From contig SOJW01000020.1 in assembly GCA_004375895.1 (NCBI GenBank), positions 1,170-65,169 on the forward strand: DNA of 64,000 nucleotides, in the 5' to 3' direction. Position numbers and translations under genes: made by a program. Below the pieces are notes generated by a model. The model was not told where the DNA came from and made no database searches. It was given only the letters and a program-made list of their open reading frames with translations. The DNA comes from Candidatus Stahliibacteriota bacterium. Its GTDB lineage: Bacteria > Hydrothermota > Tepidihabitantia > B3-TA06. Positions 1 through 14,395 of the stretch are shown piece after piece. How positions within the stretch are numbered: the first letter of the stretch is position 1; every line of letters begins with the position of its first letter.

Positions 1-2
1 AG

Positions 3-710: not shown

Positions 711-736
711 AGTTCGTGTGGCGCTTGGCAGGGGTG

Positions 737-838
737 TCAAATGGGGGATTCTACGATGCGGATTTCATCCTCGGTCAGGTCGTAGAGCTTGTATACAAGC
801 TTGTCAATCTCACGGTCGAAGCAATCGGTAGAGCAGAG
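737..838 (-). pseudogene. Relic of a restriction-modification enzyme C-terminus (no start codon)
   Basis: Minus-strand frame reads ...DREIDKLVYKLYDLTEDEIRIVESPI*; identical 23-aa motif to ORF 1990..2187; stop lies inside the GTGTCAAATGGGGG motif. Confidence 0.5.
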
Positions 839-840
839 AT

Positions 841-1941
841 TTAAGATTCCTTGCCAGCACGACCATGTTTGTGGCGATGGTGAAGGTCGGGCTTGTGACG
901 GTGACTATGGGTTACTTGCTCGTGCTCATGCAGATGAGAATGACTGTCGCCTGTCGTGCTTTCGTTATCCGAATGTGCGTGGTGTAGGTCGTCGTGGCGG
1001 TGGCGATGCTCATGCACAATCGGTCCATGAGTATGAATATGCGCGTGTCTTTCGCCGAGAAGGAGCCAGGCTCCAGCCACCATGAGTAGCGCTGAGACAG
1101 CGAACTGCCAGGTGAATGTCTCCCTGAAAAGCAGGAAAGAGAGGAGCATGCCAAAGAACGGGGCTGTTCCGAATAATGCGCTCGATCTTGCCGCTCCCAT
1201 ATTCCGCATGGCAAGGATAAAGAGAACGATACTGACGCCGTAGCTTAAGCTGCCGATGGCAAGGGCCAGGGCTATCAACTCAAAAGGCGGTAGCTTCTGC
1301 CGCAAGAGCAGCGCCAGGACAAGTGAAAAAAGCCCTGCAGCCAGTCCCTTAATCACAACTATCGCAAAAGGGTCTTTTCCGGAAATTGCGCGTGTGAAGT
1401 TGTTGTCCGCCCCCCAAAGCACGCAAGCACCGAGCACTCCAAGAGCGCCCAGGGAGAAACCCCACGCGCCGCCCCATTTTAGGGACAAAAGAATGCTTGC
1501 GAGCGTGATTACGGCGACTGCTATCCAGGTGCGCAAACCGCCGGACTCGCGGAAGAAGAGCACTGCGATGAGCGTTGTTGCGACAGCTTCGAAATTCAAA
1601 AGAAGTGAAGCAGTTGCAGCAGGCGTTGACTTGAGGCCGAAGAGAAAAACAATTGGCGCGGCTACCCCACCCGCAAGAACTGCTCCGGATAACCACGGCA
1701 GATCCTTAAGACGAAGAGGGGCCTCAGCCTGAGTCCAGGTTTTGCGAGTCTTGCGCAGTAACAGCAAAAGGAATGCCCCCAGCCCGCTTCCCAAATAAAG
1801 AAAGGAAGCCAGCGGAACCGGTTCTACACGGCTCAAAAGCAGCTTGGCCGCAGGTGCGCTAGCTCCAAACAGGGCTGCCGCCAGAAGGACTTGAAGGATT
1901 GGGAGTAGAAGCTGACTCTTGTAAGCGCCTTTGTTATTCAT
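841..1941 (-). CDS. EamA/DMT-family multipass transporter with a His-rich C-terminal tail
   Basis: Hydrophobic multipass protein with two EamA-like halves; last ~68 aa contain 22 His (HAHIHTHGPIVHEHRHRHDDLHHAHS...HSHRHKPDLHHRHKH). Confidence 0.8.
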   Translation of the reverse strand: MNNKGAYKSQLLLPILQVLLAAALFGASAPAAKLLLSRVEPVPLASFLYLGSGLGAFLLLLLRKTRKTWTQAEAPLRLKDLPWLSGAVLAGGVAAPIVFLFGLKSTPAATASLLLNFEAVATTLIAVLFFRESGGLRTWIAVAVITLASILLSLKWGGAWGFSLGALGVLGACVLWGADNNFTRAISGKDPFAIVVIKGLAAGLFSLVLALLLRQKLPPFELIALALAIGSLSYGVSIVLFILAMRNMGAARSSALFGTAPFFGMLLSFLLFRETFTWQFAVSALLMVAGAWLLLGERHAHIHTHGPIVHEHRHRHDDLHHAHSDNESTTGDSHSHLHEHEQVTHSHRHKPDLHHRHKHGRAGKES

Positions 1942-1989
1942 CTTGAGGATACGATACTTGAGCGGAGAAAAAAATCAAGGGAAATACAT

Positions 1990-2187
1990 TCAATTCCCTT
2001 CCACAATCCTTATCTCATCCTCGGTGAGGTCGTAAAGCTTGTACACCAGCTTATCAATCTCCCGGTCGGTGTAGTCAATCTGACGCTTGAGCGCTTCGCT
2101 TTCGTGGGAGGACACCCTCTCAGGGTGTCCGGGCAGTCTGGAGAGGCTGCCCTCCTTTGAAGTCTCAAACTCCCTTAACTTATCCAT
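1990..2187 (-). CDS. 65-aa ORF carrying an RM-methyltransferase-type C-terminal helix (relic or small protein)
   Basis: ...DREIDKLVYKLYDLTEDEIRIVEGN*; LVYxLYxLTxEEIxIVE tail is typical of type IIG/type I RM enzymes; own consensus promoter 5 nt upstream of the ATG. Confidence 0.5.
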   Translation of the reverse strand: MDKLREFETSKEGSLSRLPGHPERVSSHESEALKRQIDYTDREIDKLVYKLYDLTEDEIRIVEGN

Positions 2188-2192
2188 GCCTA

Positions 2193-2221
2193 AATATACT
2201 CCAATTGTTAGGGAGTGTCAA
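2193..2221 (-). promoter_or_regulatory. Sigma-70 promoter, probably leaderless, for the 65-aa ORF
   Basis: Minus strand TTGACA-17 nt-TATATT-taggc-ATG; the -35 lies inside a GTGTCAAATGGGGG motif copy. Confidence 0.6.
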
Positions 2222-2231
2222 ATGGGGGGTA

Positions 2232-3461
2232 TCAGGTGATTAAGAATTCTTCTTCCTTGGCTTGTTTCCTTTGATTACATCTTCTATGGGCAAGTTGAGC
2301 GTTGCTTTCGACTGTTTTTCCGCCCTTCGCCCAAGGTACGATGTGGTCTAGTGTTACATTTTGATAGCGCTTGACTTCTTTTTTGCAAATCTGGCATATA
2401 TGTTTTGAATCCCGGCGCCAAATCTTTTGTTTCAAAGCCGCGGGAAAATTTCTCGTTTGATCTAGCTTTTGGGAATGCTTTAACACTAACTCACTTATTA
2501 TCTTCACTCTCTCCTCCCTCTTTGTTTTTTGTCTTATAGCACCCAATACACTCTTTTTGTACTTCTCGGAGGGATCAACTATGAAATCAAGTAAATCCTT
2601 CTTTAGCGCATCCGGTTTCCTTAGGATATAATACTTGTTGATCAGTAAACCTATCGCAAGAAACAAGCTAATGAAATGGGTTCTTTTACCGAAAGAAGAC
2701 GCTTGGATATCTTGTTTTGAAAACAATGTTTCGATATTCGCCAGGGTTTTTCTGAATTTGGATTTCAATTTTGATGATTTACTCTCCGATATATTTCTAT
2801 TGGTTTTTAAGCAGGAATCAAGCTCAGGCTTCCTACCGCTTGCCACGACACCCTTATTCAAGCAGTTACAAAGATCAATGATGTCGTCTAGTGGAATCAT
2901 TCTCTTGACGTTCTCGTTCGTGTATATAAGATCTTCATAGAAGTGTCTATGCTCAAGGTAAATTTCCTTTACCATTTCAAGGATGTTAGTTTTATCATAT
3001 TCATTATTCCATTTTTCCATGTTATTCAACTTTATGCCAGTACTGTTAATTCTTTGGAACAGAAAATTAATATCTGGTTGATTGAAATTCTGAAGATAGT
3101 GGCCATTGAATTTGTAAGTCGTGATCTTCTGTTGAGTCGTGCGATCTAAGTCTTTGAAAAAATATTCCTTACCATCTATCTTTATTACGAATTTGTTGTC
3201 TAGAAATCTATAGATAGCTGTAAGCCTTTGTTGCCCATCAACCACATAATGAACGCTGCATCCCTTCTTTGCATCGTATTCTTCTGTCAGATAGAACTTC
3301 GGAATTGGCATCCCTTTCAGAATAGAATCGATTAATAATTGCTCATCCCTAAGCTTCCATATATAACCTCTTTGCCAATCGGGATCAGAAATTAACTCCC
3401 CCCTATCCATTTTCCCCTTTAGCTCATGAATTCTCAATTCCCAATTATAGTATTCTACCAC
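2232..3461 (-). CDS. DUF262 (ParB-like, DGQQR) + C-terminal HNH endonuclease; GmrSD-like candidate type IV restriction enzyme
   Basis: YVVDGQQRLTAIYRF and FQRINSTGIKLNNMEKW (DUF262); CQICKK...LDHIVPWAKGG...NAQLAHRRCNQRK (HNH); GTG start after GGAGG; markedly AT-rich. Confidence 0.85.
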   Translation of the reverse strand: MVEYYNWELRIHELKGKMDRGELISDPDWQRGYIWKLRDEQLLIDSILKGMPIPKFYLTEEYDAKKGCSVHYVVDGQQRLTAIYRFLDNKFVIKIDGKEYFFKDLDRTTQQKITTYKFNGHYLQNFNQPDINFLFQRINSTGIKLNNMEKWNNEYDKTNILEMVKEIYLEHRHFYEDLIYTNENVKRMIPLDDIIDLCNCLNKGVVASGRKPELDSCLKTNRNISESKSSKLKSKFRKTLANIETLFSKQDIQASSFGKRTHFISLFLAIGLLINKYYILRKPDALKKDLLDFIVDPSEKYKKSVLGAIRQKTKREERVKIISELVLKHSQKLDQTRNFPAALKQKIWRRDSKHICQICKKEVKRYQNVTLDHIVPWAKGGKTVESNAQLAHRRCNQRKQAKEEEFLIT

Positions 3462-3480
3462 GGTAGCCTCCTTTTAGAAA

Positions 3481-3508
3481 ATTATAACCAAAATCCTAAA
3501 CTTGTCAA
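3481..3508 (-). promoter_or_regulatory. Consensus sigma-70 promoter of the DUF262-HNH gene
   Basis: Minus strand TTGACA-16 nt-TATAAT, then AAAAGGAGG and GTG start. Confidence 0.7.
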
Positions 3509-3562
3509 CCCCTCTTTGCGCTGGGCGGTGACTTGACATCTCCCTTGGGTCAGGTCAGCGTC

Positions 3563-3587
3563 GGTTTTTGCCAAAAATACCCCGAAA
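3563..3587 (+). repeat. Right-boundary box copy 1 (GGTTTTTGCCAAAAATACCCCGAAA)
   Basis: Near-identical to 8089..8115; followed by TGACGAGTT (3658..3666), as in copy 2. Confidence 0.7.
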
Positions 3588-3605
3588 TTGCCCCAAAATG
3601 TCCAA

Positions 3606-3649
3606 CTTTTGGGTAGCTTTTGACCACCTTTTGACCACCTTTTGACCAG
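3606..3649 (+). repeat. Four tandem 11-bp units CTTTTGACCAC/G (iteron-like)
   Basis: cttttgggtag cttttgaccac cttttgaccac cttttgaccag; exact 11-bp period; related pair at 12586..12607. Confidence 0.85.
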
Positions 3650-3706
3650 CTTAATTGTGACGAGTTCGATGTAAACCTGGCCTGGTTTGCCCGGCAAGGG
3701 CAGGGC

Positions 3707-3735
3707 TTGACATCGCCCTTGGGGAGGGGTATAGT
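3707..3735 (+). promoter_or_regulatory. Sigma-70 promoter of the GlmL-like gene
   Basis: TTGACA-17 nt-TATAGT, 18 nt before GTG 3754; the -35 region CTTGACATCNCCCTTGGG is duplicated at 3533..3550. Confidence 0.6.
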
Positions 3736-3753
3736 AGTGGAATGGAGTAGTTT

Positions 3754-6606
3754 GTGAGATTGCGAGACGCAAAGCTTATCCTTGTTACCGACGTGGGCAG
3801 CACCACGACCAAGGCGCTTTTGATTGCGCGCGAGGGGGACAAGTTCCGCTTCGCCGGTGAGTTAGAGGTGCCCACCACCGTGGAGAAACCTGCAGAAGAC
3901 GTCAAGATTGGGGTGCTTGAGTCGGTGCGGGGGCTTGAGCAAAAGACCGGCACCACGCTCCTTGCCGACGGCAAGATAGCGATCCCATATTTGACCACCA
4001 GCTCGGCGGGCGGCGGGCTACAGATACTTGTGTTCGGGCTATCCGCACTTGAGACCGGCCGCGCGGCCCAGATGACCGCCTACGGCGCTGGCGGGGTGAT
4101 TCTGCGAACCTTCACCATAGACGATCAGATACCGGCGGTGGACAAGATGCGTCTCATCCGCGAGCTTCACCCTGATTTGATTCTGATGGCCGGCGGCGTT
4201 GACGGCGGTGCGATCTCGGGCGTGGTTCGTCTAGCCGAGCTTTTGTCCCTGGCCGATCCTGAGCCGAAGTTCAGGCTCTCGGAGCGCATCCCGCTTGTCT
4301 TCTGCGGCAATGTGGACGCGCGCGGGTTCGTTACACGTGTGCTTGAGGGGAACTTCGAGCTGTATATCACCGACAACATCCGCCCCAGCATGACCGAGCT
4401 TGCGACCGAGCCTGCCAAGCGCAAGGTGCACGAGCTTTTCATGGAGAACGTGATGGAGCGCGCGCCTGGCTACGCCGAGCTTAAGAACTGGGTGGCCGCG
4501 GACATCATGCCCACCCCTGCCGGGGTCGAGAATATCTTAAGGCTCTACGGCGAGAAGCTTAGCCAAAACATCCTTATGGTAGACATGGGCGGCGCGACCA
4601 CCGACATCTTCTCGAATATAGGCGGAGCGTATCATAGAACGGTGGCGGCCAACATCGGGATGAGCTACTCGGTATCGAACGTCCTTGCCGAGGTCGGCAT
4701 AGAGCGGATAATGCGGCACCTGCCTGGGGGTTTCACAGAGACCGAGGTGCGGGATTACATCTCGGGCAAGATGCTTAACCCGACCTACGTGCCCGGGCAG
4801 GCATGCGAGCGTGTGCTGGAGCAGGCCGCGGCCATTGAGGGGATCAACCTAGCCTGGGAGCAGCACAAGGATATGAACTTCAAGGTCTCGCGGATCGGAC
4901 GCCTGGACAGGAGACGATTACGCAAGGACGTCAATAAGTTCGAGGAGCTGTTTTATCTGAACGAAGAGCGCTACTTCCAGCTTTCGGATATCGATTTGAT
5001 CATCGGTGCTGGCGGCGTACTCTCGCATGCCGACCGAGTCGAAGAGGTCTTATGGATGCTTGCCGAGGGGTTCAGGCCATCGGGGATCACGAAGCTCGCG
5101 GTTGACCGCCACTTCAAGAGCCCTCACCTTGGGGTGCTGGCAAAGCTGGACGCTGAGGTTGCGCTTGATCTTTTTAAGGGCGAATGTCTGCAGGAGATCG
5201 GCTACGTTGTAGCGCCTGTGGGCAAGCTTCATCCCAAACGGCTGGCACTGACCATCAAGGATGCCCGAGGCTCAAAGGCCTATGCCCTTAAAGGCGGGGA
5301 GCTGCTGTATCTTCCCCAGGGCGGCGAGTTGGAGATACTGCTGGAGAAGGGGTTATGTATTCGCAACAACCTTGAGCGCTTTGAGTTAAAAACCTCCCTG
5401 CCCGTGCTTTTCGACTGCCGTGGCAGGGGCGAGAAGCTGTTGGGCGTGCCGCTTGCCTGCTCAGGGATAGAGGAGTTCTCACCAGCCGCAGGGACGTTCA
5501 AAACAGAAGTAAGGAAGGAAGCGGCTGAGATATCTGCAGGCACCTACAAAATCCAGCGCCGGCTCCCATACGAGGGCGAGATATTCGTCAAGCCCGGCCA
5601 GGAGGTGAAGCCTGACGATATCATAGGAGAGAACCGGTTCGGGCCGCCCAAGCTTTATATCATCGATATGCAGCGGGTGGTAGGATACGATAAGCCGTTA
5701 AGCGAGGAGGACTTCCTTGAAGGTCTCAAGGTAAAGATCGGTGATACGGTCAAACTCGGCCAGAACATCTTTCACTTCAAGCCCAAAGGCGCATTGCAGA
5801 TTCCATACAACTATCAATCCCCCATCAGGGGCATAGTGACGGGTATCGAGCAAGCCAGTAAGATGATAATAATGCGGGAGATCCAGGACTACGACGGCAG
5901 ACCCCACGTTGTAGACGTAGCCGGGAAGCTGGACATAAAGCCCGGACACATCAAGGCATACATGAAGTTCCAGGAGGGCGACTTTATCGAGATCGGTCGT
6001 ATAATTGCCCAAAACACATCCCAGGGCCGATTCCTGGTGGCAAAGGCCACCTCAACCGGGATGTTGAAGAAGATAGATACAAAGAAGGGCACGGTTACGA
6101 TCCAGTACCACATCACGCCGATACCGTTGCGCTCGTTCGTTTCGGGCAAGGTGAGCAGGGTGAAGGAGAACCTCGGCGTCGAGATAACCGGTCAGGGCAC
6201 AACGCTTTACGGCATCATAGGCTTCGGCGGCGAGGCTTCGGGCAAGATTCTTCTGAGCTCTCGCGAGCCGGACAGCTCTGCCAAAGCAAAGATTGTGGTT
6301 ACCTTTAATCCCGTTGACGAGGCTTTCTTGAGAAAGGCTGCTGAGGCAGGTGTTGCCGGGCTAATCGCGCCCTCGATTCACAACGCCGATTGGGTTCGCT
6401 TCTACGGGGAAGAGATCGGCGTGGCGCTGACAGGCGACGAGCAAATCCCGTTTACGTTGATACTTACCGAGGGGTTCGGTCGCTTTGCGATGAACGAGCG
6501 CTACCGCAGCTTCTTTGAGGCCGCGACGGGCAAGCTAGCCAGCCTTTCGGGCCGCACCCAGATACGCGCCGGCGTCACAAGACCCACGGTTATCGTAAGC
6601 GAATAG
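3754..6606 (+). CDS. GlmL/MutL-type ASKHA ATPase domain fused to a ~450-aa uncharacterised C-terminal region
   Basis: VTDVGSTTTKALL and MVDMGGATTDIFS phosphate-binding motifs, as in the glutamate-mutase accessory protein GlmL; C-terminal half has repeated KxGDxVxxGQxI barrel-like motifs. Confidence 0.6.
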   Translation: MRLRDAKLILVTDVGSTTTKALLIAREGDKFRFAGELEVPTTVEKPAEDVKIGVLESVRGLEQKTGTTLLADGKIAIPYLTTSSAGGGLQILVFGLSALETGRAAQMTAYGAGGVILRTFTIDDQIPAVDKMRLIRELHPDLILMAGGVDGGAISGVVRLAELLSLADPEPKFRLSERIPLVFCGNVDARGFVTRVLEGNFELYITDNIRPSMTELATEPAKRKVHELFMENVMERAPGYAELKNWVAADIMPTPAGVENILRLYGEKLSQNILMVDMGGATTDIFSNIGGAYHRTVAANIGMSYSVSNVLAEVGIERIMRHLPGGFTETEVRDYISGKMLNPTYVPGQACERVLEQAAAIEGINLAWEQHKDMNFKVSRIGRLDRRRLRKDVNKFEELFYLNEERYFQLSDIDLIIGAGGVLSHADRVEEVLWMLAEGFRPSGITKLAVDRHFKSPHLGVLAKLDAEVALDLFKGECLQEIGYVVAPVGKLHPKRLALTIKDARGSKAYALKGGELLYLPQGGELEILLEKGLCIRNNLERFELKTSLPVLFDCRGRGEKLLGVPLACSGIEEFSPAAGTFKTEVRKEAAEISAGTYKIQRRLPYEGEIFVKPGQEVKPDDIIGENRFGPPKLYIIDMQRVVGYDKPLSEEDFLEGLKVKIGDTVKLGQNIFHFKPKGALQIPYNYQSPIRGIVTGIEQASKMIIMREIQDYDGRPHVVDVAGKLDIKPGHIKAYMKFQEGDFIEIGRIIAQNTSQGRFLVAKATSTGMLKKIDTKKGTVTIQYHITPIPLRSFVSGKVSRVKENLGVEITGQGTTLYGIIGFGGEASGKILLSSREPDSSAKAKIVVTFNPVDEAFLRKAAEAGVAGLIAPSIHNADWVRFYGEEIGVALTGDEQIPFTLILTEGFGRFAMNERYRSFFEAATGKLASLSGRTQIRAGVTRPTVIVSE

Positions 6607-6617
6607 ACTATACTAAA

Positions 6618-6632
6618 GGTGTCAAATGGGGG
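6618..6632 (+). repeat. GGTGTCAAATGGGGG motif copy (left boundary of AT-rich islet 2)
   Basis: Same 15-mer at 733..747, 2215..2229 (1 mismatch) and 13958..13972 (1 mismatch). Confidence 0.8.
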
Positions 6633-6656
6633 AAGAGATATAGAGGGAAACGGCTG

Positions 6657-6685
6657 TTGACAACGAAGAGATTCGGACTATTATT
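6657..6685 (+). promoter_or_regulatory. Putative promoter of the DUF488 gene
   Basis: TTGACA-17 nt-ATTATT in AT-rich DNA; GGAGA SD before ATG 6716. Confidence 0.4.
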
Positions 6686-6715
6686 ATATAATAAAACAGA
6701 AAGGAGAAACGGATA

Positions 6716-7183
6716 ATGAAACCGTGGGTTCTCTATACAATCGGTTATCAAGGTATTTCAATCGAGGAACTGATTGGGGATCTCAAACAAAATAACGTGA
6801 AGTGCATAGTGGATGTTAGGCGTAATGCTATTTCCCGAAAGCAAGGTTTCTCAAAAGAATCTTTGCGGAAGTCATGCCAAGCTGCTGAGATTGAATACTT
6901 CCATATCCCTCAGTTGGGCATTGAAAGTAAGATGCGACGTGGGCTAAAGGCTAATTGGGAATATGTAAAGTTATTGGACACTTACGAGAAAGAGCTTCTC
7001 CCTCAGAAAGAAGAATATATAAATGAGCTTAGGAGAATCGTCGAATCGCAAGTCTGCGCGCTTTTCTGTTTTGAAGCGACTCCCCAACTATGCCATCGTA
7101 GTAGGCTCGCTGCTAAGTTAGAAGAAATATCCCATTTAAGGATTAGACATCTGGAGCCTGCTTGGGACTTAGCAAGTACATAA
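6716..7183 (+). CDS. DUF488-family protein
   Basis: LYTIGYQGISIEELI...KCIVDVRRNAISRKQGFSK...FCFEATPQLCHRS matches the DUF488 pattern. Confidence 0.75.
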   Translation: MKPWVLYTIGYQGISIEELIGDLKQNNVKCIVDVRRNAISRKQGFSKESLRKSCQAAEIEYFHIPQLGIESKMRRGLKANWEYVKLLDTYEKELLPQKEEYINELRRIVESQVCALFCFEATPQLCHRSRLAAKLEEISHLRIRHLEPAWDLAST

Positions 7184-7974
7184 AAAAGAAAGTTCTCATA
7201 ACAATTAAGACCTATCCCCTTCCTTCTCCATTCCACAGAGAAATAGTTTGTACTGGTGGGATTGAAGAAAACGGAGGGTTTATAAGACTTTATCCCATAA
7301 GTTTTAGATACCTAGATTGGTGGAGGAGATACAGAAAGTATGACTGGATAGAAGTGGAGTGTGAAAAAAGCAATGACCCTCGCAAGGAAAGCTATAAACC
7401 CAATCAGCAATCTATTAGGATAATTGGATATATCCCAACCAAAAGGGGGAATTGGGATGAAAGAGCCAAACACGTTTTGCCTAATTTGTCAAAATCCATA
7501 GAGGAGCTTAAAGAGCAACAGAAAATCGAGAAAACTTCTATGGGGATCATAAGACCCAAAGAGATAGAGGATTTAGTCGTAGAAAAGGATGAAGAAGATT
7601 GGCCAGATAGATGGAAGAAGGTTTTCAAACAGCTAAACCTCATAGGTCCAAATCAAAAGCCACTCGATAAAATACCCTTTAAGTTCTCCTATAAATTCAC
7701 TTGCGACGATGAAAGATGTCGGGGCCATAAGATGATGATCTCTGATTGGGAAGTCGGCGCATGTTATCTCAATGTTCTGAAAAGCGGTTCTTCCCCAGAA
7801 GAGGCGGCTCAAAAAGTACGCCAACAGTTTTTCGATAGGATCTGTTCCCCAAAACGGGATACGTATTTCTATGTAGGTACGCTTCTAATACACCCCCAAA
7901 CCTGGATCGTCGTGGGACTTTTTTATCCTAAAAAGAAAAACTTTCCTCAAAATAAACAGAAAAGATTTTTGTAA
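7162..7974 (+). CDS. Hypothetical 270-aa protein, no family recognised
   Basis: Long ORF in an AT-rich islet with no in-frame ATG near the 5' end (TTG 7162 overlaps the DUF488 stop by 22 nt); CDDERCRGHKMMISDWE Cys/His cluster. Confidence 0.6.
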   Translation: MGLSKYIKKKVLITIKTYPLPSPFHREIVCTGGIEENGGFIRLYPISFRYLDWWRRYRKYDWIEVECEKSNDPRKESYKPNQQSIRIIGYIPTKRGNWDERAKHVLPNLSKSIEELKEQQKIEKTSMGIIRPKEIEDLVVEKDEEDWPDRWKKVFKQLNLIGPNQKPLDKIPFKFSYKFTCDDERCRGHKMMISDWEVGACYLNVLKSGSSPEEAAQKVRQQFFDRICSPKRDTYFYVGTLLIHPQTWIVVGLFYPKKKNFPQNKQKRFL

Positions 7975-8088
7975 CCATAATTTTGATCCCTTTATTTCCT
8001 ACCTCTTACTTTTCGGCCTTTTGGCGTAGAGTAGGTAGAAGAGGGGGCGGAGGGAAATTGTGGCGGCCTTTTTTCACAAATCTGCACC

Positions 8089-8115
8089 GGGTTTTGCTCA
8101 AAAATACCCCAAAAA
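8089..8115 (+). repeat. Right-boundary box copy 2 (GGGTTTTGCTCAAAAATACCCCAAAAA)
   Basis: Aligns with 3563..3587; TGACGAGTT recurs at 8139..8147. Confidence 0.7.
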
Positions 8116-8170
8116 ATGCGACGAATGCCATTAAAACCTGACGAGTTTGCGCGGCGTGGGACGATATATC

Positions 8171-8198
8171 TTGACAAATAGACCGTGGCGGCTATGCT
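8171..8198 (+). promoter_or_regulatory. Sigma-70 promoter of the small OM protein gene
   Basis: TTGACA-16 nt-TATGCT, then TAGGAGG and ATG 8218. Confidence 0.6.
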
Positions 8199-8217
8199 TA
8201 TAAAATTAGGAGGCAAG

Positions 8218-8700
8218 ATGAAAAGGACACTTATGATTTCTGCGCTGCTTTTAATTGCTCTCGCAGGGGCAGCCCAGGCAGCGCACGCAAGCCATGGGGA
8301 CGTGGGCATCGGCTTCCAGCTTGGAGAACCAACCGGTATTACCGCCAAGTTCTGGCTTGACCGTACCAGCGCGATAGACGCGACCGTGGGCTGGAACTTG
8401 ATCAGCGACAGGTTTACCCTCCAGGCCGGGTATCTCTACCACTTCCCTCTGGATGTTCCCACAGGAGCCCTTGCCGCTTACGTTGGCGTGGGTGGATTGC
8501 TGGGCGGAGGCAGCTACCGTCCTGACCATCCCCACTATCCAGACGAGGCGTACATACTACTTGCCGGGCGCATTCCACTTGGTCTAGAGTATATCTACAG
8601 CCCGGTAAGCTTCTACGCGGAGCTTGACCCTCTTATTACCCTCTTGCCTGCAGTAGGACTCGGCTTCGGCGGAGGAATCGGCTTCAGGTTCTACTTTTAG
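8218..8700 (+). CDS. Small secreted protein, predicted outer-membrane beta-barrel
   Basis: Signal peptide MKRTLMISALLLIALAGAAQA; alternating Gly/aromatic beta-strand pattern; C-terminal GFRFYF. Confidence 0.6.
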   Translation: MKRTLMISALLLIALAGAAQAAHASHGDVGIGFQLGEPTGITAKFWLDRTSAIDATVGWNLISDRFTLQAGYLYHFPLDVPTGALAAYVGVGGLLGGGSYRPDHPHYPDEAYILLAGRIPLGLEYIYSPVSFYAELDPLITLLPAVGLGFGGGIGFRFYF

Positions 8701-8749
8701 TTAACCCCACGAAGTTGCTTCACCCGACGGGGGTGCAGGCGCACCTTCG

Positions 8750-8791
8750 CACCCAAAGGACGGGCACAAGCACCCAAAGGACGGGCACAAG
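8750..8791. repeat. Perfect 21-bp tandem duplication
   Basis: cacccaaaggacgggcacaag x2. Confidence 0.9.
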
Positions 8792-8844
8792 CGGGGACCC
8801 TGAAAATAAATACTCCTTTTGCGTAACCCTCTAAAGCATCACTC

Positions 8845-9546
8845 CTACCGCGTTACCGAATCAGGCGGCGTTATCGGGTGAGGGTCTTCCTGTGCGGAAA
8901 GTGACGATATCTCGAACGCCTGTGAAGGGGTGATCTGGGTGCCGCGATGCCTGAGGTATATCCTGGCCCAATCGTAAGGAGCTATCGTCACGTGCCAGGA
9001 GAGACCCATCTCCCAATCTTTGAAGAAGAAGAGGTAATGGGAAACGACCAGGATGTTAGGGCGTCCGGATGTTCCTGTCCAGGAGGCCTGTTCGTCTATT
9101 CCCAGTTCAGGATGGTTCTCAGCCAGCCACGGGATAAACCTGTCACGGACTTCAATAGCACTCTGTTCGTCTGTAGCGAAACCATCTACAACCGCAATCA
9201 ACACTTGCACAGTGTCGCGGTAAGAACCTCTTTCACCTTGTATGGTAACAACTACCGTGTCTTTAAGGCTCGAAGAATCAGGGATAACCGTAACCTCTGC
9301 GACCTTGTTCCCGTTTATAGGCGAATACTCTAGGAGAACCTCTGCACCCTCGGCTGAAGCCCTGATCTCTATCTCTTCTCCTCCCTCGTCTTCTTCAGGC
9401 CATGCAAGAAACACGCAGCGCCGCCCCACAAGGGCTTCCATTGTTCCAGGCACGACCTCAAGAGAGAATGCCTCATCCTTTGAACAGGCACTGAAAGAAC
9501 CTATCAAAAGGATTACGGTTACCACAAAAAGCTTTACCCTTAACAT
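8845..9546 (-). CDS. Hypothetical lipoprotein
   Basis: MLRVKLFVVTVILLIGSFSAC lipobox at internal Met; upstream ORF extension has no support. Confidence 0.6.
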   Translation of the reverse strand: MLRVKLFVVTVILLIGSFSACSKDEAFSLEVVPGTMEALVGRRCVFLAWPEEDEGGEEIEIRASAEGAEVLLEYSPINGNKVAEVTVIPDSSSLKDTVVVTIQGERGSYRDTVQVLIAVVDGFATDEQSAIEVRDRFIPWLAENHPELGIDEQASWTGTSGRPNILVVSHYLFFFKDWEMGLSWHVTIAPYDWARIYLRHRGTQITPSQAFEISSLSAQEDPHPITPPDSVTR

Positions 9547-9702
9547 ACTCTTTCTCTCCTTTCTACAAGAATTGATGCCCGCATTTCTGGACACAAAAGT
9601 CTTTATTCTCGAATTCACTCCTAATCCTGCCTTTAGAGAAGAGAGATTCAACACTCTCTAAAAATCTTCTGCGATTTTTTTGTCGAAGACAAAAAGGAGC
9701 AT

Positions 9703-9921
9703 TTACTTCCCCTTGAGGTTGGCCTCGAACCAGCGCAGGATGTGGTTCAGCCGTGCTATGCGACGGTCGGTGCGACCTGAGCGAGGAGGTTCGGGAATTT
9801 CGGCAGGATAACTCACCATCCCGGTGTGAACGCCGAGTTTCTTGCCTGCGACTTGACTCAGGGCACGTGTGGCCCGTCATATATCGCCAGGAACGAAGCG
9901 GAGAGTGATATTGCAATTCAT
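9703..9921 (-). pseudogene. Possible relic of an alpha/beta-hydrolase (S9 peptidase-like) C-terminus
   Basis: Minus frame LRFVPGDI*RATRALSQVAGKKLGVHTGMVSYPAE...RLNHILRWFEANLKGK* with an in-frame TGA. Confidence 0.3.
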
Positions 9922-9933
9922 CCATCCTAGCAC

Positions 9934-10686
9934 TCACTTCAAAGGCTTGGTGCCTATCAGGATGGGGACTTCCGGATAATTGGGATCGTCTAACTTGAGG
10001 TTTGCAAGCGTTACCTCAAAGCCCACCTTCTTTGCAAGATCAATCCAGGTTGCAAGATGGAATATCCCCAGAAGATGGCGGTCTGCTTCGATCGCAAGAT
10101 CGCCTCCGCGCCGGATCAGGAATATGAAGGTGGCTTCAAAGGTGGTATCTCGCGGATCAGGATCGTACTGATTCTCTATAAGGGTTATCTCTACCCCGCC
10201 CTTGGTGTGGGTTGAGACCGTGGTCTTGTTCTGTTTGAAGCGCTCCGGGGTCTCTTCTTCCATGTAGGTGAGGAACACCCCGCCTGGATTCAGATGAACG
10301 TAAGCGGTCTGGAACGCGGCGCGGAGATCCTCAACCGTGAGCATGTAGGAGATTGAATCGAAGATGGTCACCGCGTCAAAGGTCTTACCTAATCTGACCG
10401 AACGCATATCGCCGGATAGATATGTGACTTCGGGATTGAGTTTTTTTGCCCCCTCGAGCATCTGTGAGCTTACGTCAACGCCGGTGATTTCAAAGTAGCG
10501 CTTCAAGGTAAAGTCGTTGTGCCCGCCGCCGCAGCCCAGATCGAGTAAGGTTTTAACCTCTATCTTTGAGTGTTTGATGATCAGATCGCGGAACTTCTTT
10601 GACTCCTCTATATAGTCCTCAGGCGGGCTGATTATGGGCCAGGTCCATGCAAGGTCATTGTATAGCCTGTTCTTGTTCTTATCCAT
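9934..10686 (-). CDS. Class I SAM-dependent methyltransferase
   Basis: Motif I LLDLGCGGGHND; acidic loop ITGVDVS; typical ~250-aa size. Confidence 0.85.
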   Translation of the reverse strand: MDKNKNRLYNDLAWTWPIISPPEDYIEESKKFRDLIIKHSKIEVKTLLDLGCGGGHNDFTLKRYFEITGVDVSSQMLEGAKKLNPEVTYLSGDMRSVRLGKTFDAVTIFDSISYMLTVEDLRAAFQTAYVHLNPGGVFLTYMEEETPERFKQNKTTVSTHTKGGVEITLIENQYDPDPRDTTFEATFIFLIRRGGDLAIEADRHLLGIFHLATWIDLAKKVGFEVTLANLKLDDPNYPEVPILIGTKPLK

Positions 10687-10707
10687 TTCCCATCCAAGGC
10701 ACAGACC

Positions 10708-10826
10708 GTGGAGGATACCCTCTCAGGGTGTTCCTTCTCAGGGTCCCAATATGTCATCCCTGCGGGATGACATGGGCAGGCTGAGAGCCTACCCTCCATA
10801 AGTCCGTTCTCCATATTAAAAGAAGG
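10708..10826 (+). repeat. REP-like repeat copy 1
   Basis: gtggaggatacc[ctctcagggtgt insertion]ccttctcagggtcccaatATGTCATCCCTGCGGGATGACATgggcagg... Confidence 0.9.
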
Positions 10827-10858
10827 TTTTCTTCCGATATTCCGCATACTCCGGGTAA

Positions 10859-11353
10859 TCATTCCTCACCCTCAACCCAAGCCCTCCATAGCCAGGGATA
10901 ATCATCAACCTTTTTCACCAGGCCTTTTCTGACTGGATTGGCACAGATGTATTCGACCTTGCTTTCGGCATGTTCATAGGAACGCAGGATGCGGTCAAAG
11001 TATTCCTTCTGCCACACCTTACCTTCCCTGCCTAACGCTCTATTGATACTGCGGGCTGAAGCTCCTTTTATCCCCTGCATAATCTCTGCTAGGCCGTAGG
11101 TGACGCCTTGATCATCCTTCAATGGAGTAATAATCATATGGACATGGTCAGGCATAACGACAACACCGTGAAGAAAAAACTTTTTCCCGTGGTCGTGCAG
11201 GCAGTGTTTAATAACCAGATGCCGAACTGATTCGGGAAGTATCCAGCGTTTGAAAGTTGAAAAGGTTACAAAAAGGGATTTCCCTTCTCTCTGCAGATGG
11301 GGCAGCTTCCGGCAGTAGCTTTCTTTAGCAGGTTTTGCAGACGGTCGTTTCAT
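10859..11353 (-). CDS. REP-associated tyrosine transposase (IS200/IS605 Y1 HUH family, RAYT-like)
   Basis: HUH motif MPDHVHMII; catalytic-Tyr helix VEYICANPVRKGL; 164 aa; no TnpB partner. Confidence 0.8.
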   Translation of the reverse strand: MKRPSAKPAKESYCRKLPHLQREGKSLFVTFSTFKRWILPESVRHLVIKHCLHDHGKKFFLHGVVVMPDHVHMIITPLKDDQGVTYGLAEIMQGIKGASARSINRALGREGKVWQKEYFDRILRSYEHAESKVEYICANPVRKGLVKKVDDYPWLWRAWVEGEE

Positions 11354-11370
11354 TTTCTAATCCTTTCCCC

Positions 11371-11475
11371 GTGGAGGATACCTTCTCAGGGTCCCAATAT
11401 GTCATCCCTGCGGGATGACATGGGCAGGCTGAGAGCCTACCCTCCATAAGTCCGTTCTCCATATTAAAAGAAGGA
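11371..11475 (+). repeat. REP-like repeat copy 2
   Basis: Same orientation and sequence as copy 1, without the 12-13 nt insertion. Confidence 0.9.
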
Positions 11476-11799
11476 CCGAGTAGATGCCGGTGGTCACCAG
11501 CTTACCCCTCTCTTGGCAAGGTCCGAGTAGATGAAAAGACCAAGGCCTATTACGAACATCCCGGCCCCGATGTAGCGCGGCCAACCGATGAAGACCATCT
11601 TCACCGGATCGGAAAGACTCATGAACCCCCAAGCCGCCCACATGAGGAACATAACAATCATAATGAGAGCGAAAACCCCTCTGCTCTTCCCTTCCCCGGG
11701 CCGGCGGCGCATGAGAATGTAGTAAACGTTGCGGGTAACCGAGGTGGCAAGCCAGACTGCGAAAGCCGCAAAGAACCATGGGGTGATCTCTATGGACAT
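11476..11799 (-). pseudogene. ICMT/PEMT-family membrane methyltransferase, frameshifted and truncated at the REP repeat
   Basis: GGAGGAG SD + ATG 11799; TM N-terminus in one frame; family motif KLVTTGIYSV in the adjacent frame runs into the repeat where RHPxY should follow. Confidence 0.5.
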
Positions 11800-11974
11800 G
11801 ATTTCTCCTCCATCTAAAGGAATAGCAGGTTTATTAACGATTATACTGAGGATCATAAGAAATTCACCCTTCCCCTTAATCCCCTTACCCTATGGGGTGC
11901 AGTAAAATTGGCACCCCAAGGGGCACGCTGCCCACCAGGGGAGGGGAATTGCTGTTTCCAGCTCAAGCGTAAGG

Positions 11975-12020
11975 TTCTCCTCCCCCTTGACGGGGGAGGG
12001 TTAGGGTGGGGGTGAATAAA
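11975..12020 (+). repeat. GC-rich CCCTTGACGGGGGAGGG-TAGGG module, copy 1
   Basis: cctcccccttgacgggggagggttagggtgggggtgaa; second copy at 12395..12445. Confidence 0.75.
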
Positions 12021-12124
12021 AACGCCCTGTCCGGTTTTACTTACCCGGTAAACCATACCTGAAAAGAGTTCATGTTAATTCAGTCTACTGGGATGAGGTG
12101 GGGTGTCAACCAATTCCTTCCCTA

Positions 12125-12255
12125 GTCATCGCGAGGCTGTCGCAGACAGCCGTGGCGATCTCATAGCACTAGCTTTGAACGGCCACTACCTGCTATGAGA
12201 TTGCTCCCTGCGTTCGCCCTCCGGTGCTTCGTCTCCTTCGGAGACTCGCAATGAC
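12125..12255. repeat. ~130-bp palindromic element
   Basis: Outer GTCATCGCGAG / CTCGCAATGAC and inner GCGATCTCATAGCA / TGCTATGAGATTGC inverted repeats; each arm has its own small hairpin. Confidence 0.75.
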
Positions 12256-12394
12256 AATAAAAAGAAATAAAAACGGGCCGACTTGAAAGTCGGCCCCTAC
12301 GAGGTTATTATTCAATGCTTTCGGGTTGGAACAGGCTTTTGAACAGACACGATGTATTGACCATGGACAGAGATAATCGAATACTACCGCCTCA

Positions 12395-12445
12395 TCCTTA
12401 ATATACCCCTCCCTTGACGGGAGGGGGTAGGGGGAGGGTGAATTA
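12395..12445 (+). repeat. GC-rich CCCTTGACGGGAGGGGGTAGGG module, copy 2
   Basis: cccctcccttgacgggagggggtagggggagggtgaa. Confidence 0.75.
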
Positions 12446-12585
12446 ACAACAGCGGGCCGACCTAACGCTTGTGCCCCCGTCGGGTACGAAGCGGACGCCA
12501 TAGGCGTCAACGTCGGCCCCTACATTTTTCGCTCACCCCACACAGCTGCTACGCATCGTCGCGGGGACCCCGTAAGGGTGTCCAG

Positions 12586-12630
12586 CTTTTGACCAGCTTT
12601 TGACCAGTATTTGGGGAGTTTTTGTCACCC
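12586..12630 (+). repeat. Two 11-bp CTTTTGACCAG units plus an inverted, degenerate boundary box
   Basis: cttttgaccag x2, then tatttggggagtttttgtcaccc, resembling the reverse complement of TTGCCAAAAATACCCCGAAA. Confidence 0.6.
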
Positions 12631-12643
12631 TTTTTCTGAGACT

Positions 12644-13798
12644 TCAAAACAGCTGAACCCCTGCCGAGAATCCAGCCCAGATGCGGGTCCAGGTATTGCC
12701 GGAGCGGCCCTCATAAAGAGCAAGATCAAAGATGGGTATATCCGAACCGTCCTCCTCGGTGGAGACCCAGACGTTAATGGTCGGGCCTGCGGTTACGGCA
12801 AGCTTGGGGCTAATCTGCCAACCGGCGGTAATGCGCAGCTTGTTGAGCATGTTGAGTCCTTCCTGACTCCAGAATATCAGCCCTTCTGAGACATTGTAAC
12901 CCACAGCGTCGATATCGAGGAAGAACGGATCGGCCGGTATGTGTCCGCCGATCCCCAGTCCCAGCCTGCTTCTGAGAGGTGAACCCAGCGGCTGCAGTCC
13001 GACGGCATAAACGTTGTAGACGTGCTTGGAGCCGAGCTTTATACCCACGTTGAGAAGTGAGCTTTCATCCGTCCAGGCGTTAACGTGGAACTGCCCGTTC
13101 TTGACGATGCTGACGATGCCGATAGGTACGCCGTCGTGATCGGTGGCTACGTTAACCACGCCCAGCTGCAGGCCACGGGCGTGCCCCGCGATGTTAACCA
13201 CACCCGCCTGCGTGTACGTCTCGCCAAGCGCAATGTTAACCACACCTATCTGGACGGTACTGTTCCTGCCTACCATATTCCCGGCACCGGCAATCTGCAC
13301 TCCGGTTACGTCACCCAAGGCGAAGTTCATCACTCCGGCAAGTTGCAGCCCTGTGACATGGGTAAGTGTAATGTTTGCCACTCCGGCGAGCTGTGCACCC
13401 TCAAAGTCGCCTCGAACCACATTAGTTACGCCTGCGATTTGGGCAACACTGAATTCTCCACCGACAACGTCAATTAAGCCTGCGATCTGTAAGCCGGCCA
13501 CGTCGCCGCCTGCGAAGTTGCCCACACCTGCGGCTTGAAAACCTGTGACGTGACCCTTATCTATGTTTAATACAGAGCCTATCTCGCAGCCCTCGATGTT
13601 ACCGATAAGACCTCCGATTATGTTAAGCGAGAAGTTAGAAGTAACGTGAGTGTAGGGTGGACCATTCGAACCAAAGCCGGGAACGAACGAAACGGATACA
13701 GGCCTGTGGACAGGCTCGGCTTGGGCTGAGATCACCGACGGCATGAAAAGCGCCATGATACTGACGACTAAGATACAAATCCTTTCTGAGTTGCGCAT
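12644..13798 (-). CDS. Secreted repeat protein (LA_2272-like AGxxNxAxGxVxGxQxAG repeats) with beta-barrel-like C-terminus
   Basis: GGAGGAG SD + ATG 13798; signal peptide ...MPSVISAQA; about 10 tandem repeats, e.g. GLQIAGLIDVVGGEFSVAQIAGVTNVVRGDFEGAQLAGVANI. Confidence 0.7.
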   Translation of the reverse strand: MRNSERICILVVSIMALFMPSVISAQAEPVHRPVSVSFVPGFGSNGPPYTHVTSNFSLNIIGGLIGNIEGCEIGSVLNIDKGHVTGFQAAGVGNFAGGDVAGLQIAGLIDVVGGEFSVAQIAGVTNVVRGDFEGAQLAGVANITLTHVTGLQLAGVMNFALGDVTGVQIAGAGNMVGRNSTVQIGVVNIALGETYTQAGVVNIAGHARGLQLGVVNVATDHDGVPIGIVSIVKNGQFHVNAWTDESSLLNVGIKLGSKHVYNVYAVGLQPLGSPLRSRLGLGIGGHIPADPFFLDIDAVGYNVSEGLIFWSQEGLNMLNKLRITAGWQISPKLAVTAGPTINVWVSTEEDGSDIPIFDLALYEGRSGNTWTRIWAGFSAGVQLF

Positions 13799-13811
13799 AA
13801 AACTCCTCCTT

Positions 13812-13843
13812 GTGATCTTTTGCGCGAAGCGCAAAAGGAGCAT
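13812..13843 (-). repeat. ATGCTCCTTTT-hairpin-AAAAGATC element copy in a 5' UTR
   Basis: Minus strand ATGCTCCTTTTGCGCttcGCGCAAAAGATCAC, between promoter 13938..13965 and ATG 13798. Confidence 0.7.
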
Positions 13844-13937
13844 TGAAAACATTTGCTCCTCCTTTTGAGGACTGAACTTAAACTCTCTTGAAAGGGGCAC
13901 TCAATCTACGAAAGTAGTGCCATCCTAACTAAATAGA

Positions 13938-13965
13938 ATTATAGCTGAGACCGCGGGGGTGTCAA
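13938..13965 (-). promoter_or_regulatory. Consensus sigma-70 promoter of the repeat-protein gene
   Basis: Minus strand TTGACA-16 nt-TATAAT; the -35 lies in a GTGTCAAATG motif copy. Confidence 0.65.
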
Positions 13966-14076
13966 ATGTGGGATGGATAAAAGAACGCTGGTCGAGCGGG
14001 TGCCTGTGCCATAGAGGGGGAAGCCCGCTGCCGATACGATGCTTCCGACGGACGCCAATCGAGTCGGCAGGCGTCC

Positions 14077-14104
14077 TTGACAGGGTAAAGCTAACGGCTA
14101 TACT
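14077..14104 (+). promoter_or_regulatory. Sigma-70 promoter with no obvious downstream gene
   Basis: TTGACA-16 nt-TATACT; only 14-aa and 28-aa mini-ORFs follow. Confidence 0.5.
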
Positions 14105-14366: not shown

Positions 14367-14395
14367 TTGACAGCCCTGCTAAGTTCGTGTATAGT
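14367..14395 (+). promoter_or_regulatory. Sigma-70 promoter of the Roadblock/GTPase cluster
   Basis: TTGACA-17 nt-TATAGT; AAGGAGG SD before ATG 14426. Confidence 0.65.

Follow-up and report, generated by a model that had tools for sequence, protein, structure and literature searches.

A two-gene islet in Candidatus Stahlbacteria is a short variant of the phage-defence candidate PDC-M19

The closest catalogued relative of the locus described here is PDC-M19, one of 145 defence candidates held in PADLOC. The PDC candidates were chosen by 'guilt by embedding', as genes lying within BREX, DISARM and RM-I systems, and are defence candidates only (Payne et al., bioRxiv 10.1101/2024.01.29.577857; PADLOC-DB v2); a literature search for PDC-M19 by name found nothing. 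The PanA-PanT type II toxin-antitoxin systems, which have a Panacea-domain antitoxin and include SocA-SocB, are tightly linked pairs of highly variable toxin type, and SocB is described as a replication-inhibiting toxin; neither a DUF488 fusion nor an OB-fold partner is mentioned in the main text of the PanAT preprint (bioRxiv 10.1101/2021.05.07.442387). DarT-DarG, a toxin-antitoxin and defence system, is a two-gene module directed at single-stranded DNA (ssDNA), whose antitoxin has one domain with enzymatic function and another that binds the toxin. Tandem-OB binders include TEBP-alpha, POT1, Teb1, CTC1, baculovirus LEF-3 and RPA70, the last of which carries a zinc ribbon within the OB of its DBD-C. 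DUF488 itself is a very widespread domain, and no function or biochemical activity is described for it among the literature matches listed. Burroughs and Aravind, in 2023, are said to have placed DUF488 in the rhodanese-phosphatase superfamily, within a RapZ-C/DUF488/DUF4326 clade, and DNA-end processing was reportedly predicted for this clade.

The window, the whole 64-kb stretch of DNA that we analysed, contains an islet of two overlapping genes, A and B, both on the forward strand. Gene A (6716-7183, ATG start) encodes a DUF488 protein of the short form, 155 aa in length, and gene B (7162-7974, TTG start) encodes a dual-OB-like protein of 270 aa; the 22-nt overlap claimed by an earlier note on this DNA is therefore correct. 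Both component HMMs of PDC-M19 were matched, and the genes are adjacent and co-directional in PDC-M19 as they are in the window. B matches PDC-M19B (PDLC04508) over positions 3-264 of 269 with an E-value of 1.5e-77, and A matches PDC-M19A (PDLC04505) with an E-value of 5.2e-51, covering only positions 150-290 of the 294 in the profile, which is its C-terminal DUF488 half; the N-terminal ~150 aa are missing. In the PHROGs collection B matches phrog_25907 (2.5e-60) and A matches phrog_14939, and A is also a clear member of Pfam DUF488 (PF04343, E 7e-27, 94.9 bits against a gathering cut-off of 22.2). NCBIfam holds no model for either protein. The statement in the earlier note that B belongs to no recognisable family was thus wrong. 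The locus is almost certainly a PDC-M19-type cassette, and since this family is already in PADLOC, the window holds a short version of a known kind, whose A has no domain other than DUF488.

The islet is AT-rich, as had been described, with a GC content of 0.399 over 6633-7999 compared with 0.574 in the upstream gene and 0.522 downstream, or ~40 % against flanks of 52-57 %. The promoter that had been proposed for it was also found, at 6657-6684 on the forward strand, where a -35 hexamer TTGACA (6657-6662) and a -10 hexamer TATTAT (6679-6684) are separated by a 16-nt spacer and together match 11 of 12 consensus positions. The -35 hexamer is unchanged in five copies of the cassette, each in a different context, and in the closest relative, L081, similarity to the islet starts at 6656. 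Reading of the forward strand places a Shine-Dalgarno site, AGGAG, at 6702-6706, 9 nt 5' of the ATG of gene A, and a second, GGAG, at 7153-7156, within the 3' end of gene A and 5 nt 5' of the TTG at 7162. This TTG is the sole canonical start for gene B, as neither ATG nor GTG occurs in frame close by, which agrees with the earlier report of a missing ATG, and L081 has the identical 22-nt overlap and TTG start. The GenBank version of B, TET23375.1, is 264 aa long and starts six residues later, which corresponds to an alternative ATA start at 7180 if the record has the window's sequence. A and B are probably translationally coupled. No intrinsic terminator was found 3' of gene B on the forward strand, and no tRNA lies near this islet or its sister, a second islet in the window whose gene (2232-3461, reverse strand) encodes GmrSD_N/DUF262 and HNH domains and is the restriction-type nuclease previously recognised there. 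A search of positions 1-16000 against Rfam at permissive thresholds returned only a sub-threshold CRISPR-DR33 match inside the upstream gene, which we take as chance.

The length of A sets this copy apart from most of its family. About 70 of 80 relatives encode an A of 290 aa with an extra N-terminal domain of Panacea-like, antitoxin type, a feature of the family that the earlier note overlooked and that is absent from the window. Here A begins at the DUF488 domain, without the N-terminal domain of ~150 aa seen in typical M19A proteins, and no separate copy of that domain is encoded in the 64-kb window. The Panacea assignment of the long form is weak, as most sequences fall under the Pfam cut-off; the N-terminal domain matches SocA_Panacea (PF13274) at E <= 0.01 in 5 of 28 sequences, with a best E-value of 1.4e-9. 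Searches of PDB sequences with A and with a profile of the long-A N-terminal domain gave nothing useful. The family-invariant residues of DUF488 (GY, DxR, SR, GF, CxE and CHR) are all kept in the window's protein, as G10-Y11, D33-x-R35, S40-R41, G44-F45, C118-x-E120 and C126-H-R128.

The predominance of the 290-aa form, and the confinement of the M19A match to the C-terminal half of its profile, raised the question of whether the short A arose by truncation of the long form and the cassette has lost its function. We consider such decay very improbable and largely refuted. The short clade comprises eight distinct A proteins that share 62-100 % identity and are each exactly 155 aa long, and a dN/dS of about 0.13 for both genes in this clade indicates purifying selection. 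Neither reading frame is disrupted, the promoter and the two Shine-Dalgarno sites are likewise intact, and short DUF488 partners recur independently, in the loci L002 and L079, on plasmids and on viral contigs. As the minimal form of the family, the short variant would be the easiest to use in asking if B has toxicity, if A is an enzyme of nucleic-acid ends and if the pair protects against phage.

Linkage between the two genes is strict. A DUF488 gene adjoins B in all 80 homologous genome loci, which come from many phyla, and in 76 it directly precedes B in the same orientation. The gap between the matched parts of A and B, with both on one strand, does not exceed ~90 nt in 76 of the 80, where the PanAT criterion is <=100 nt. 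DUF488 also stands beside B in 7 of 8 IMG/VR viral contigs and on several plasmids. On some plasmids DUF488 is convergent with B and on another it lies 3' of B, so the association survives changes of gene order. No close relative of B without a nearby DUF488 gene was seen among the 80 loci. The wider family of B is large, with 494 homologues found by word search and 2865 clusters at 50 % identity, and no domain fusions were present among the best 150 representatives. For distant homologues in Gordonia phages and on Sulfolobus plasmids, no DUF488 partner was detected; the Gordonia phage gene that precedes the B homologue and is annotated 'immunity repressor' is neither DUF488 nor a relative of long A, and the neighbour of the Sulfolobus plasmid homologue is not DUF488 either.

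Beyond the pair itself the context is variable. Across the loci only A and B cluster and other neighbours are not conserved, in 63 of 75 loci the pair is poorer in GC than the adjoining DNA and in none is it richer, and in related Stahlbacteria genomes the cassette occupies different intergenic sites. The pair is therefore not a core gene set in a conserved setting; it is horizontally acquired and mobile. Together with the retained pairing and the existing PDC-M19 entry, this upholds the suggestion of an accessory or defence module, as a candidate. The PDC-M19-type family, spread over many bacterial phyla, plasmids and viral contigs, now has a concrete anatomy, with a strict core of DUF488 and a dual-OB, ssDNA-binder-like protein that is probably zinc-binding, and an optional antitoxin-type domain.

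Neighbours are heterogeneous and include HmaC/DUF499/DUF1156 genes, RM methyltransferases and IS elements at some loci, while most neighbourhoods consist of housekeeping genes and are not defence islands. It could be argued from this distribution that the pair serves mobile elements and not immunity, as a DNA-maintenance or anti-defence module that might, for example, safeguard or repair ssDNA as an element enters by conjugation or a phage replicates, or undo a modification that host defences have placed on DNA. Homologues of B are indeed found on 22 plasmids, including 11 conjugative ones, as well as on viral contigs, the leading regions of plasmids classically carry SSB-type proteins, the Gordonia phage homologue follows the gene annotated as an immunity repressor, and many chromosomal copies lie among housekeeping genes. 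We nevertheless think a benefit to mobile elements unlikely, as most copies, the window's included, are single chromosomal islets without nearby mobile-element genes. In addition, the PDC candidates, M19 among them, were drawn from genes inside BREX, DISARM or RM-I systems, in 3-6 of the 80 loci the pair has an HmaC/DUF499 ATPase on one side and a DUF1156 methylase on the other, and the two islets that share its boundaries, the sister islet and one at locus L096, carry restriction enzymes.

Profile and structure searches of B, which the earlier note had proposed, assigned it to the PDC-M19B family and to the tandem OB fold. The AlphaFold (AF2) model has a pLDDT of 86.5 and, using Foldseek, matches 1ph1 with an E-value of 1.3e-5 and a probability of 1.0, followed by 7yny, 6w6w, Teb1, POT1 and SSB, with TM-scores of only ~0.3. 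The model resembles the two-OB ssDNA binders TEBP-alpha, LEF-3, CTC1, Teb1 and POT1 (Foldseek probability 1.0), and B looks like a telomere-end, RPA or SSB-type protein, from which we infer that it may bind ssDNA. Unlike these proteins, B has a distinctive constellation of DWE, E, R and C residues and is without sequence similarity to solved structures, as a search of PDB sequences with the B profile found no similarity to any of them. Within the family, conservation is highest at D195-W196-E197 (7744-7752, forward strand), kept in 60, 61 and 59 of 61 sequences respectively in a diverse alignment, and acidic, Arg and Cys residues of B are near-universal in the same alignment (n=61).

The Cys/His cluster that had been noticed in B was confirmed at residues 181-189, within CDDERCRGHKMMISDWE (residues 181-197). 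It takes the form C181-x4-C186-x2-H189 (the CDDERCRGH part, nt 7702-7728, forward strand) and may form a zinc site with C228 and/or C30. The cluster sits in the second OB, as does the zinc ribbon in DBD-C of RPA70. It is invariant in 39 of 39 close relatives, and in the diverse set its three residues are present in only about two-thirds of sequences (41, 39 and 43 of 61); B probably binds zinc. The only Pfam family to recur among relatives of B is DuOB (PF22557), which is sub-threshold in 6 of 61 at E 0.002-0.1, the two best matches scoring ~18.6-18.7 bits against a gathering threshold of 27 bits. The window's B has no match to DuOB, and a literature search on DuOB found nothing relevant. The sole Pfam match for the window's protein, DUF1187 at E 0.026, was taken as chance.

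For A, structural comparison was made not with the window's own protein but with the model of a long-A homologue, which has a pLDDT of 93.9. Among PDB entries this model best matches one chain of 7yk3, the DarT-DarG complex of M. tuberculosis (Foldseek E 2e-4, probability 1.0), the output specifying neither the domain of the query nor the protein of 7yk3. It gives weak matches to PTP-fold phosphatases and to diphthine-synthase-type or tetrapyrrole-methylase folds, with DUF488-domain matches at E 0.04-0.09; 3gxh, 7mpc and 3ro1 are matched at E 0.04-0.4. The reported placement of DUF488 among the rhodanese-phosphatases would fit these matches, and A, a bona fide Pfam DUF488 protein with conserved Cys and Arg motifs, may belong to that superfamily.

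Taking these observations together, we tentatively hypothesise that the pair is a mobile module of genetic conflict whose logic is toxin-antitoxin-like and loosely recalls DarT-DarG, with B acting on ssDNA and the DUF488 enzyme A controlling or complementing it. B, through its predicted tandem OB folds and probable zinc site, would engage nucleic acid in single-stranded form, for instance intermediates of replication or recombination, and could act as a potentially harmful effector. A would be a cysteine-containing enzyme and the obligate partner of B, restraining or reversing its action, and in most family members A may also bind B through the Panacea-like domain, which the window copy does without. 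Infection, or some other imbalance between A and B, would then release B. Counted toward this logic are the SocA_Panacea matches of the long-A N-terminal domain, the DarT-DarG chain that tops the PDB matches of the long-A model, the overlap of the two genes, the constant presence of DUF488 near close relatives of B, and locus L086, in a related genome, where an intact A stands beside a B truncated to 22 codons; the retention of A there is an indirect hint at toxin and neutraliser roles.

The resemblance to DarT-DarG lies in the two-gene organisation and the putative direction at ssDNA, and is an analogy, not membership, as B is a tandem OB protein and not an ADP-ribosyltransferase, the enzyme domain of A is DUF488 and not a macrodomain, and the window copy is without a toxin-binding-type domain. 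The pair likewise recalls PanA-PanT in its tight linkage and in the Panacea-like domain of long A, yet PF13274 is absent from the window's A. Absence of the domain on which the analogy partly rests counts against the toxin-antitoxin-like scheme, as do the weak Panacea assignment, the low TM-scores of B, the marginal DUF488-domain matches, the mostly housekeeping neighbourhoods and the distant phage and plasmid homologues of B that lack DUF488.

The invariant, catalytic-looking residues of A would suit an effector equally well, and it is conceivable, if somewhat unlikely, that the roles are reversed. B would then be a harmless sensor-adaptor of ssDNA or DNA ends that recruits A, and A the effector, a Cys-dependent phosphatase or phosphotransferase acting on the termini of invader DNA or RNA to block ligation, priming or packaging. 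The enzyme-like C-x-E, C-H-R and D-x-R motifs of A, the weak PTP-fold matches of its homologue and the DNA-end processing reportedly predicted for the clade would all be consistent with such a division of labour, as would the predicted fold of B, which is of the type found in end- and ssDNA-binding proteins, and a gene order that varies, unlike that of classical antitoxin-first operons. Against it, the antitoxin-type domain is fused to A and not to B, the remnant in L086 is A-only, no close B relative was seen without a nearby DUF488 gene, and the near-universal acidic, Arg and Cys residues of B suggest that B does more than bind passively.

The islet also shares boundary elements with other islets, as had been suggested. 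On the left lies the 14-mer GTGTCAAATGGGGG (6619-6632, forward strand), which occurs unchanged at 734, 2215 and 6619 and with a single mismatch at 13959, where 0.36 matches would be expected by chance; because of this distribution the motif is not specific to islets. A similar TGTCAA(A)TGGG occurs 5-26 nt upstream of the cassette -35 in L081 and L086. On the right is a non-coding element of ~160 nt (8000-8158), containing a 25-nt block (8090-8114) that the sister islet has in common at 3563-3587. The element as a whole is single copy in the window and not a high-copy repeat, has no Rfam match, folds as RNA no better than shuffles and is absent from IMG/VR. It is 95 % identical over 159 nt to positions 2399-2557 of L096, where both flanks are unrelated and its neighbour is a BsoBI-type RM pair, and L081 retains 39 nt of it at 97 % identity. 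An integron gene cassette was considered and rejected, as no integrase lies next to the islets, the right element, unlike a structured attC site, folds no better than shuffles, and between the two islets stands a GC-rich gene of 2.85 kb, which is also present in the related genome L086.

The right boundary shared with the BsoBI locus hints at exchangeable defence cassettes, and shared boundaries could account for the swapping of small defence cassettes within this candidate phylum. A bolder reading, which we regard as quite unlikely, is that Candidatus Stahlbacteria possess an undescribed cassette-exchange platform, in which the 14-nt motif and the ~160-nt element would bracket swappable defence cargos (DUF488 with dual-OB, the GmrSD-like nuclease 4 kb away, and the BsoBI RM pair on another contig), mobilised in trans perhaps by the transposase encoded at 10859-11353. 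The cargo here would then be an immune or toxin-antitoxin system of a new type, its dual-OB protein targeting ssDNA and its Cys-dependent DUF488 performing or reversing nucleic-acid-end chemistry. The gene at 10859-11353 is of the IS200-like Y1 type.

Gene A (6716-7183, + strand) encodes a DUF488 protein of 155 aa from an ATG with AGGAG 9 nt upstream, and gene B (7162-7974, + strand) encodes a dual-OB-like protein of 270 aa from a TTG at 7162, preceded by GGAG at 7153-7156 (+ strand). The ORFs confirm the 22-nt overlap that had been read from the sequence, and A and B are probably translationally coupled. The absence of an in-frame ATG near the start of B, also remarked on in the earlier note, holds and extends to GTG, leaving the TTG as the sole canonical start. 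L081, the closest relative, shares the TTG start and the 22-nt overlap; one GenBank record holds a B of 264 aa starting six residues later, which would be ATA 7180 if its sequence equals that of the window. A protein 100 % identical to A is on record from a Candidatus Stahlbacteria (Stahliibacteriota) MAG. The pair does have its own promoter, a near-consensus TTGACA-16-TATTAT at 6657-6684 (+ strand), and the islet is AT-rich as described, with a GC content of 0.399 (6633-7999) against 0.574 in the upstream gene and 0.522 in the downstream region.

A matches Pfam DUF488 (E 7e-27), whereas neither Pfam nor NCBIfam offers a family for B. The earlier note recognised no family for B, which must be revised: both proteins fit PADLOC PDC-M19, A matching one component (5e-51) and B the other (1.5e-77), and they match PHROGs 14939 and 25907, respectively. 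The PADLOC PDC set comprises 145 'phage defence candidates', selected for the embedding of their homologues in BREX, DISARM or type I RM systems. As PADLOC already catalogues the module, the window copy is an additional member and not a first, and it is a minimal, Panacea-less one. A word search with B gave 494 matches at ~50 % identity in Planctomycetota, Acidobacteriota, Myxococcota, Chloroflexota, Bacteroidota and others, and an exhaustive HMM search gave 2865 clusters at 50 % identity. Among the best 150 of these 2865 cluster representatives each B is a stand-alone protein, mostly of 255-300 aa, and no domain fusions were found.

Taking one genome per species we obtained 80 B loci. A DUF488 gene lies near B in all 80 and immediately upstream on the same strand in 76, so the pairing, for which a census had been proposed, is conserved. 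Following all-against-all clustering of the flanking ORFs, A and B were the sole conserved genes, and B homologues are thus not core genes in a conserved context; the neighbours are heterogeneous and mostly housekeeping, with a few HmaC/DUF499, DUF1156, RM methyltransferases and IS elements. The pair is more than 3 points AT-richer than its flanks in 63 of 75 loci and GC-richer in none. With the pairing kept and the context variable, the finding is real and its hedged interpretation as a candidate accessory or defence module is supported, the defence role itself being putative; an anti-phage role is a candidate only and unproven. In an Ignavibacteriales MAG (L009, 1652-9785) a pair with a long form of A has a DUF1156 methylase on one side and a DUF499/HmaC ATPase on the other. 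A few loci share this layout, and such embedding in another defence system is the kind of context used to nominate the PADLOC candidates.

The two genes stay together when their order changes, as seen from convergent, B-first and viral-contig arrangements. B and DUF488 are convergent on Streptomyces, Rhizobium and Pseudomonas plasmids, a Fischerella plasmid carries B and then an unannotated DUF488 (hhalign 98.6 %), and DUF488 adjoins B in seven of the eight IMG/VR contigs that carry B. A role benefiting mobile elements, or one in DNA maintenance, is in our view quite improbable. Exceptions to the usual arrangement come from distant relatives of B (28-29 % identity): the homologue on Sulfolobus plasmids has no detectable DUF488 partner, and in Gordonia phages it lies directly 3' of a gene annotated as an immunity repressor. 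In phage Nymphadora (genes 43-44, 29 % identity) it begins at the stop codon of this gene. Seven temperate Gordonia phage records place it in the integrase/repressor region, and the 316-aa 'repressor' gives only a weak N-terminal HTH match, with no family assigned to its C-terminal ~240 aa.

A long A of ~290 aa, made up of an N-terminal domain of ~150 aa followed by DUF488, is encoded at approximately 70 of the 80 loci. This domain is missing from the window A, whose match to the PADLOC M19A profile is therefore confined to the second half; no separate N-domain is encoded within the 64-kb window. The cassette could be read as a degenerate, decaying remnant with a truncated A, but this is highly improbable. 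The short A clade comprises eight distinct 155-aa proteins at 62-100 % mutual identity, dN/dS is ~0.13 for both A and B, and the window A keeps all invariant DUF488 residues (G10-Y11, D33-x-R35, S40-R41, G44-F45, C118-x-E120 and C126-H-R128). Short DUF488 partners also recur independently in loci L002 and L079, on plasmids and in viral contigs. The A-B pair is self-promoted, mobile, selectively maintained and strictly linked. Locus L086 (8001-8512), from a related genome, is an A-only remnant: the short DUF488 gene and its promoter are intact, but B breaks off after 22 codons and an unrelated minus-strand gene follows.

In its AF2 model (pLDDT 86.5) B is built of two OB folds into which helices are inserted. 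Foldseek matched it to TEBP-alpha (E 1.3e-5), baculovirus LEF-3, CTC1, Teb1, POT1, SSB and RPA with high probabilities but TM-scores of only ~0.3, which supports the OB fold class and indicates no specific relative. The sole recurrent family for B relatives is Pfam DuOB ('dual OB'), sub-threshold in 6 of 61 diverse members. The Cys/His cluster noted previously (C181-x4-C186-x2-H189, with C228) does not vary within the close family, but no more than about two-thirds of the diverse set carry it, and it would thus seem to be a structural Zn site of a facultative kind. Near-universal in that set are C30, R42, R74, E76, R101, D195-W196-E197 and D233, and this constellation of Arg, acidic and Trp residues may form a functional core capable of more than passive binding.

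SocA_Panacea is a promiscuous antitoxin domain. The N-domain of long A matches this Pfam family, mostly sub-threshold (5 of 28 at E <= 0.01, best 1.4e-9). When an AF2 model of a long A (pLDDT 93.9) was compared with the PDB, the best match was to M. tuberculosis DarT-DarG (complex 7yk3, a chain of 187 residues; E 2e-4, probability 1.0); we infer that it aligns the N-domain with an antitoxin-type domain, the Foldseek output showing neither the domain nor the 7yk3 protein matched. For the DUF488 part of the model the matches are weak (E 0.04-0.4), to phosphatases of the PTP fold and to tetrapyrrole-methylase folds, and they would fit the rhodanese-phosphatase superfamily, where DUF488 has reportedly been placed. 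Tentatively, we favour a toxin-antitoxin-like conflict logic, because the antitoxin-type domain is located on A, a DUF488 gene is always near B in close relatives and L086 keeps an intact A beside a curtailed B. B would engage single-stranded nucleic acid as a potentially harmful effector, and A would be its obligate controller, acting enzymatically and, in the long forms, also using the Panacea-like domain for binding. The main rival, in which B is a sensor or adaptor and A an end-modifying effector, seems unlikely to us. The case offers a testable anatomy for DUF488 and PDC-M19.

It may also offer cassette-exchange boundaries around islets. The left motif, the intergenic 14-mer GTGTCAAATGGGGG, occurs exactly at 734-747, 2215-2228 and 6619-6632 and with one mismatch at 13959-13972, giving four copies in the first 14 kb, all on the + strand, where 0.36 are expected. 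The earlier note had the islets sharing boundary motifs; the left motif is indeed found at both, but it is not islet-specific, as the copies at 734, 2215, 6619 and 13959 include two without an adjoining AT-rich islet. L081 and L086 each have a similar motif just 5' of their cassette promoter, in different genomic contexts. The right edge is a non-coding element of ~160 nt (R, 8000-8158) with no Rfam match, no more structure than shuffled sequence, no second copy within the window and none in IMG/VR viral contigs. Over 159 nt it shares 95 % identity with positions 2399-2557 of a metagenome contig (L096) whose sequence on either side is unrelated. In L096 it directly adjoins an AT-rich pair of genes for a BsoBI-type restriction enzyme and a methyltransferase, and a left-like motif with 3 mismatches (5002-5015) lies 9 nt beyond the far islet end in the expected orientation. 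L081 retains 39 nt of R at 97 %, against only 80 % nucleotide identity in the cassette region.

The sister islet (2215-3700, GC 0.37) carries the restriction-type nuclease ascribed to it, a type IV-restriction-like GmrSD_N (DUF262) + HNH gene of 409 aa (2232-3461, - strand). It is bracketed by the exact left motif at 2215 and a diverged R (3563-3587, 3673-3695). Within this right boundary, three tandem, overlapping TTTTGACCACC-type units (3599-3653) account for ~65 nt inserted here with respect to the other R copy. Across both islets and L096 the ends are similar and the three cargos between them differ. The GmrSD-like islet is EamA-adjacent in the window, and in loci L087 and L088 of another related genome (A at 8001-8468 and 1580-2047) the A-B cassette is directly beside the EamA transporter gene; the same intergenic sites thus act as variable hotspots. 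In L086 the cassette is upstream of a MutL/GlmL-like gene, which is also in the window (3754-6606, + strand); the N-terminal half of its 950-aa product is GlmL/MutL-family (methylaspartate-mutase accessory-like, E ~1e-55) and the remaining ~475 aa have no family assigned. No recombinase flanks the islets. An ORF of 164 aa at 10859-11353 (- strand), 2.7 kb from the A-B islet, matches Pfam Y1_Tnp (IS200-like / RAYT-type HUH transposase, E 3e-8), and this candidate could mobilise the bounded cassettes in trans.
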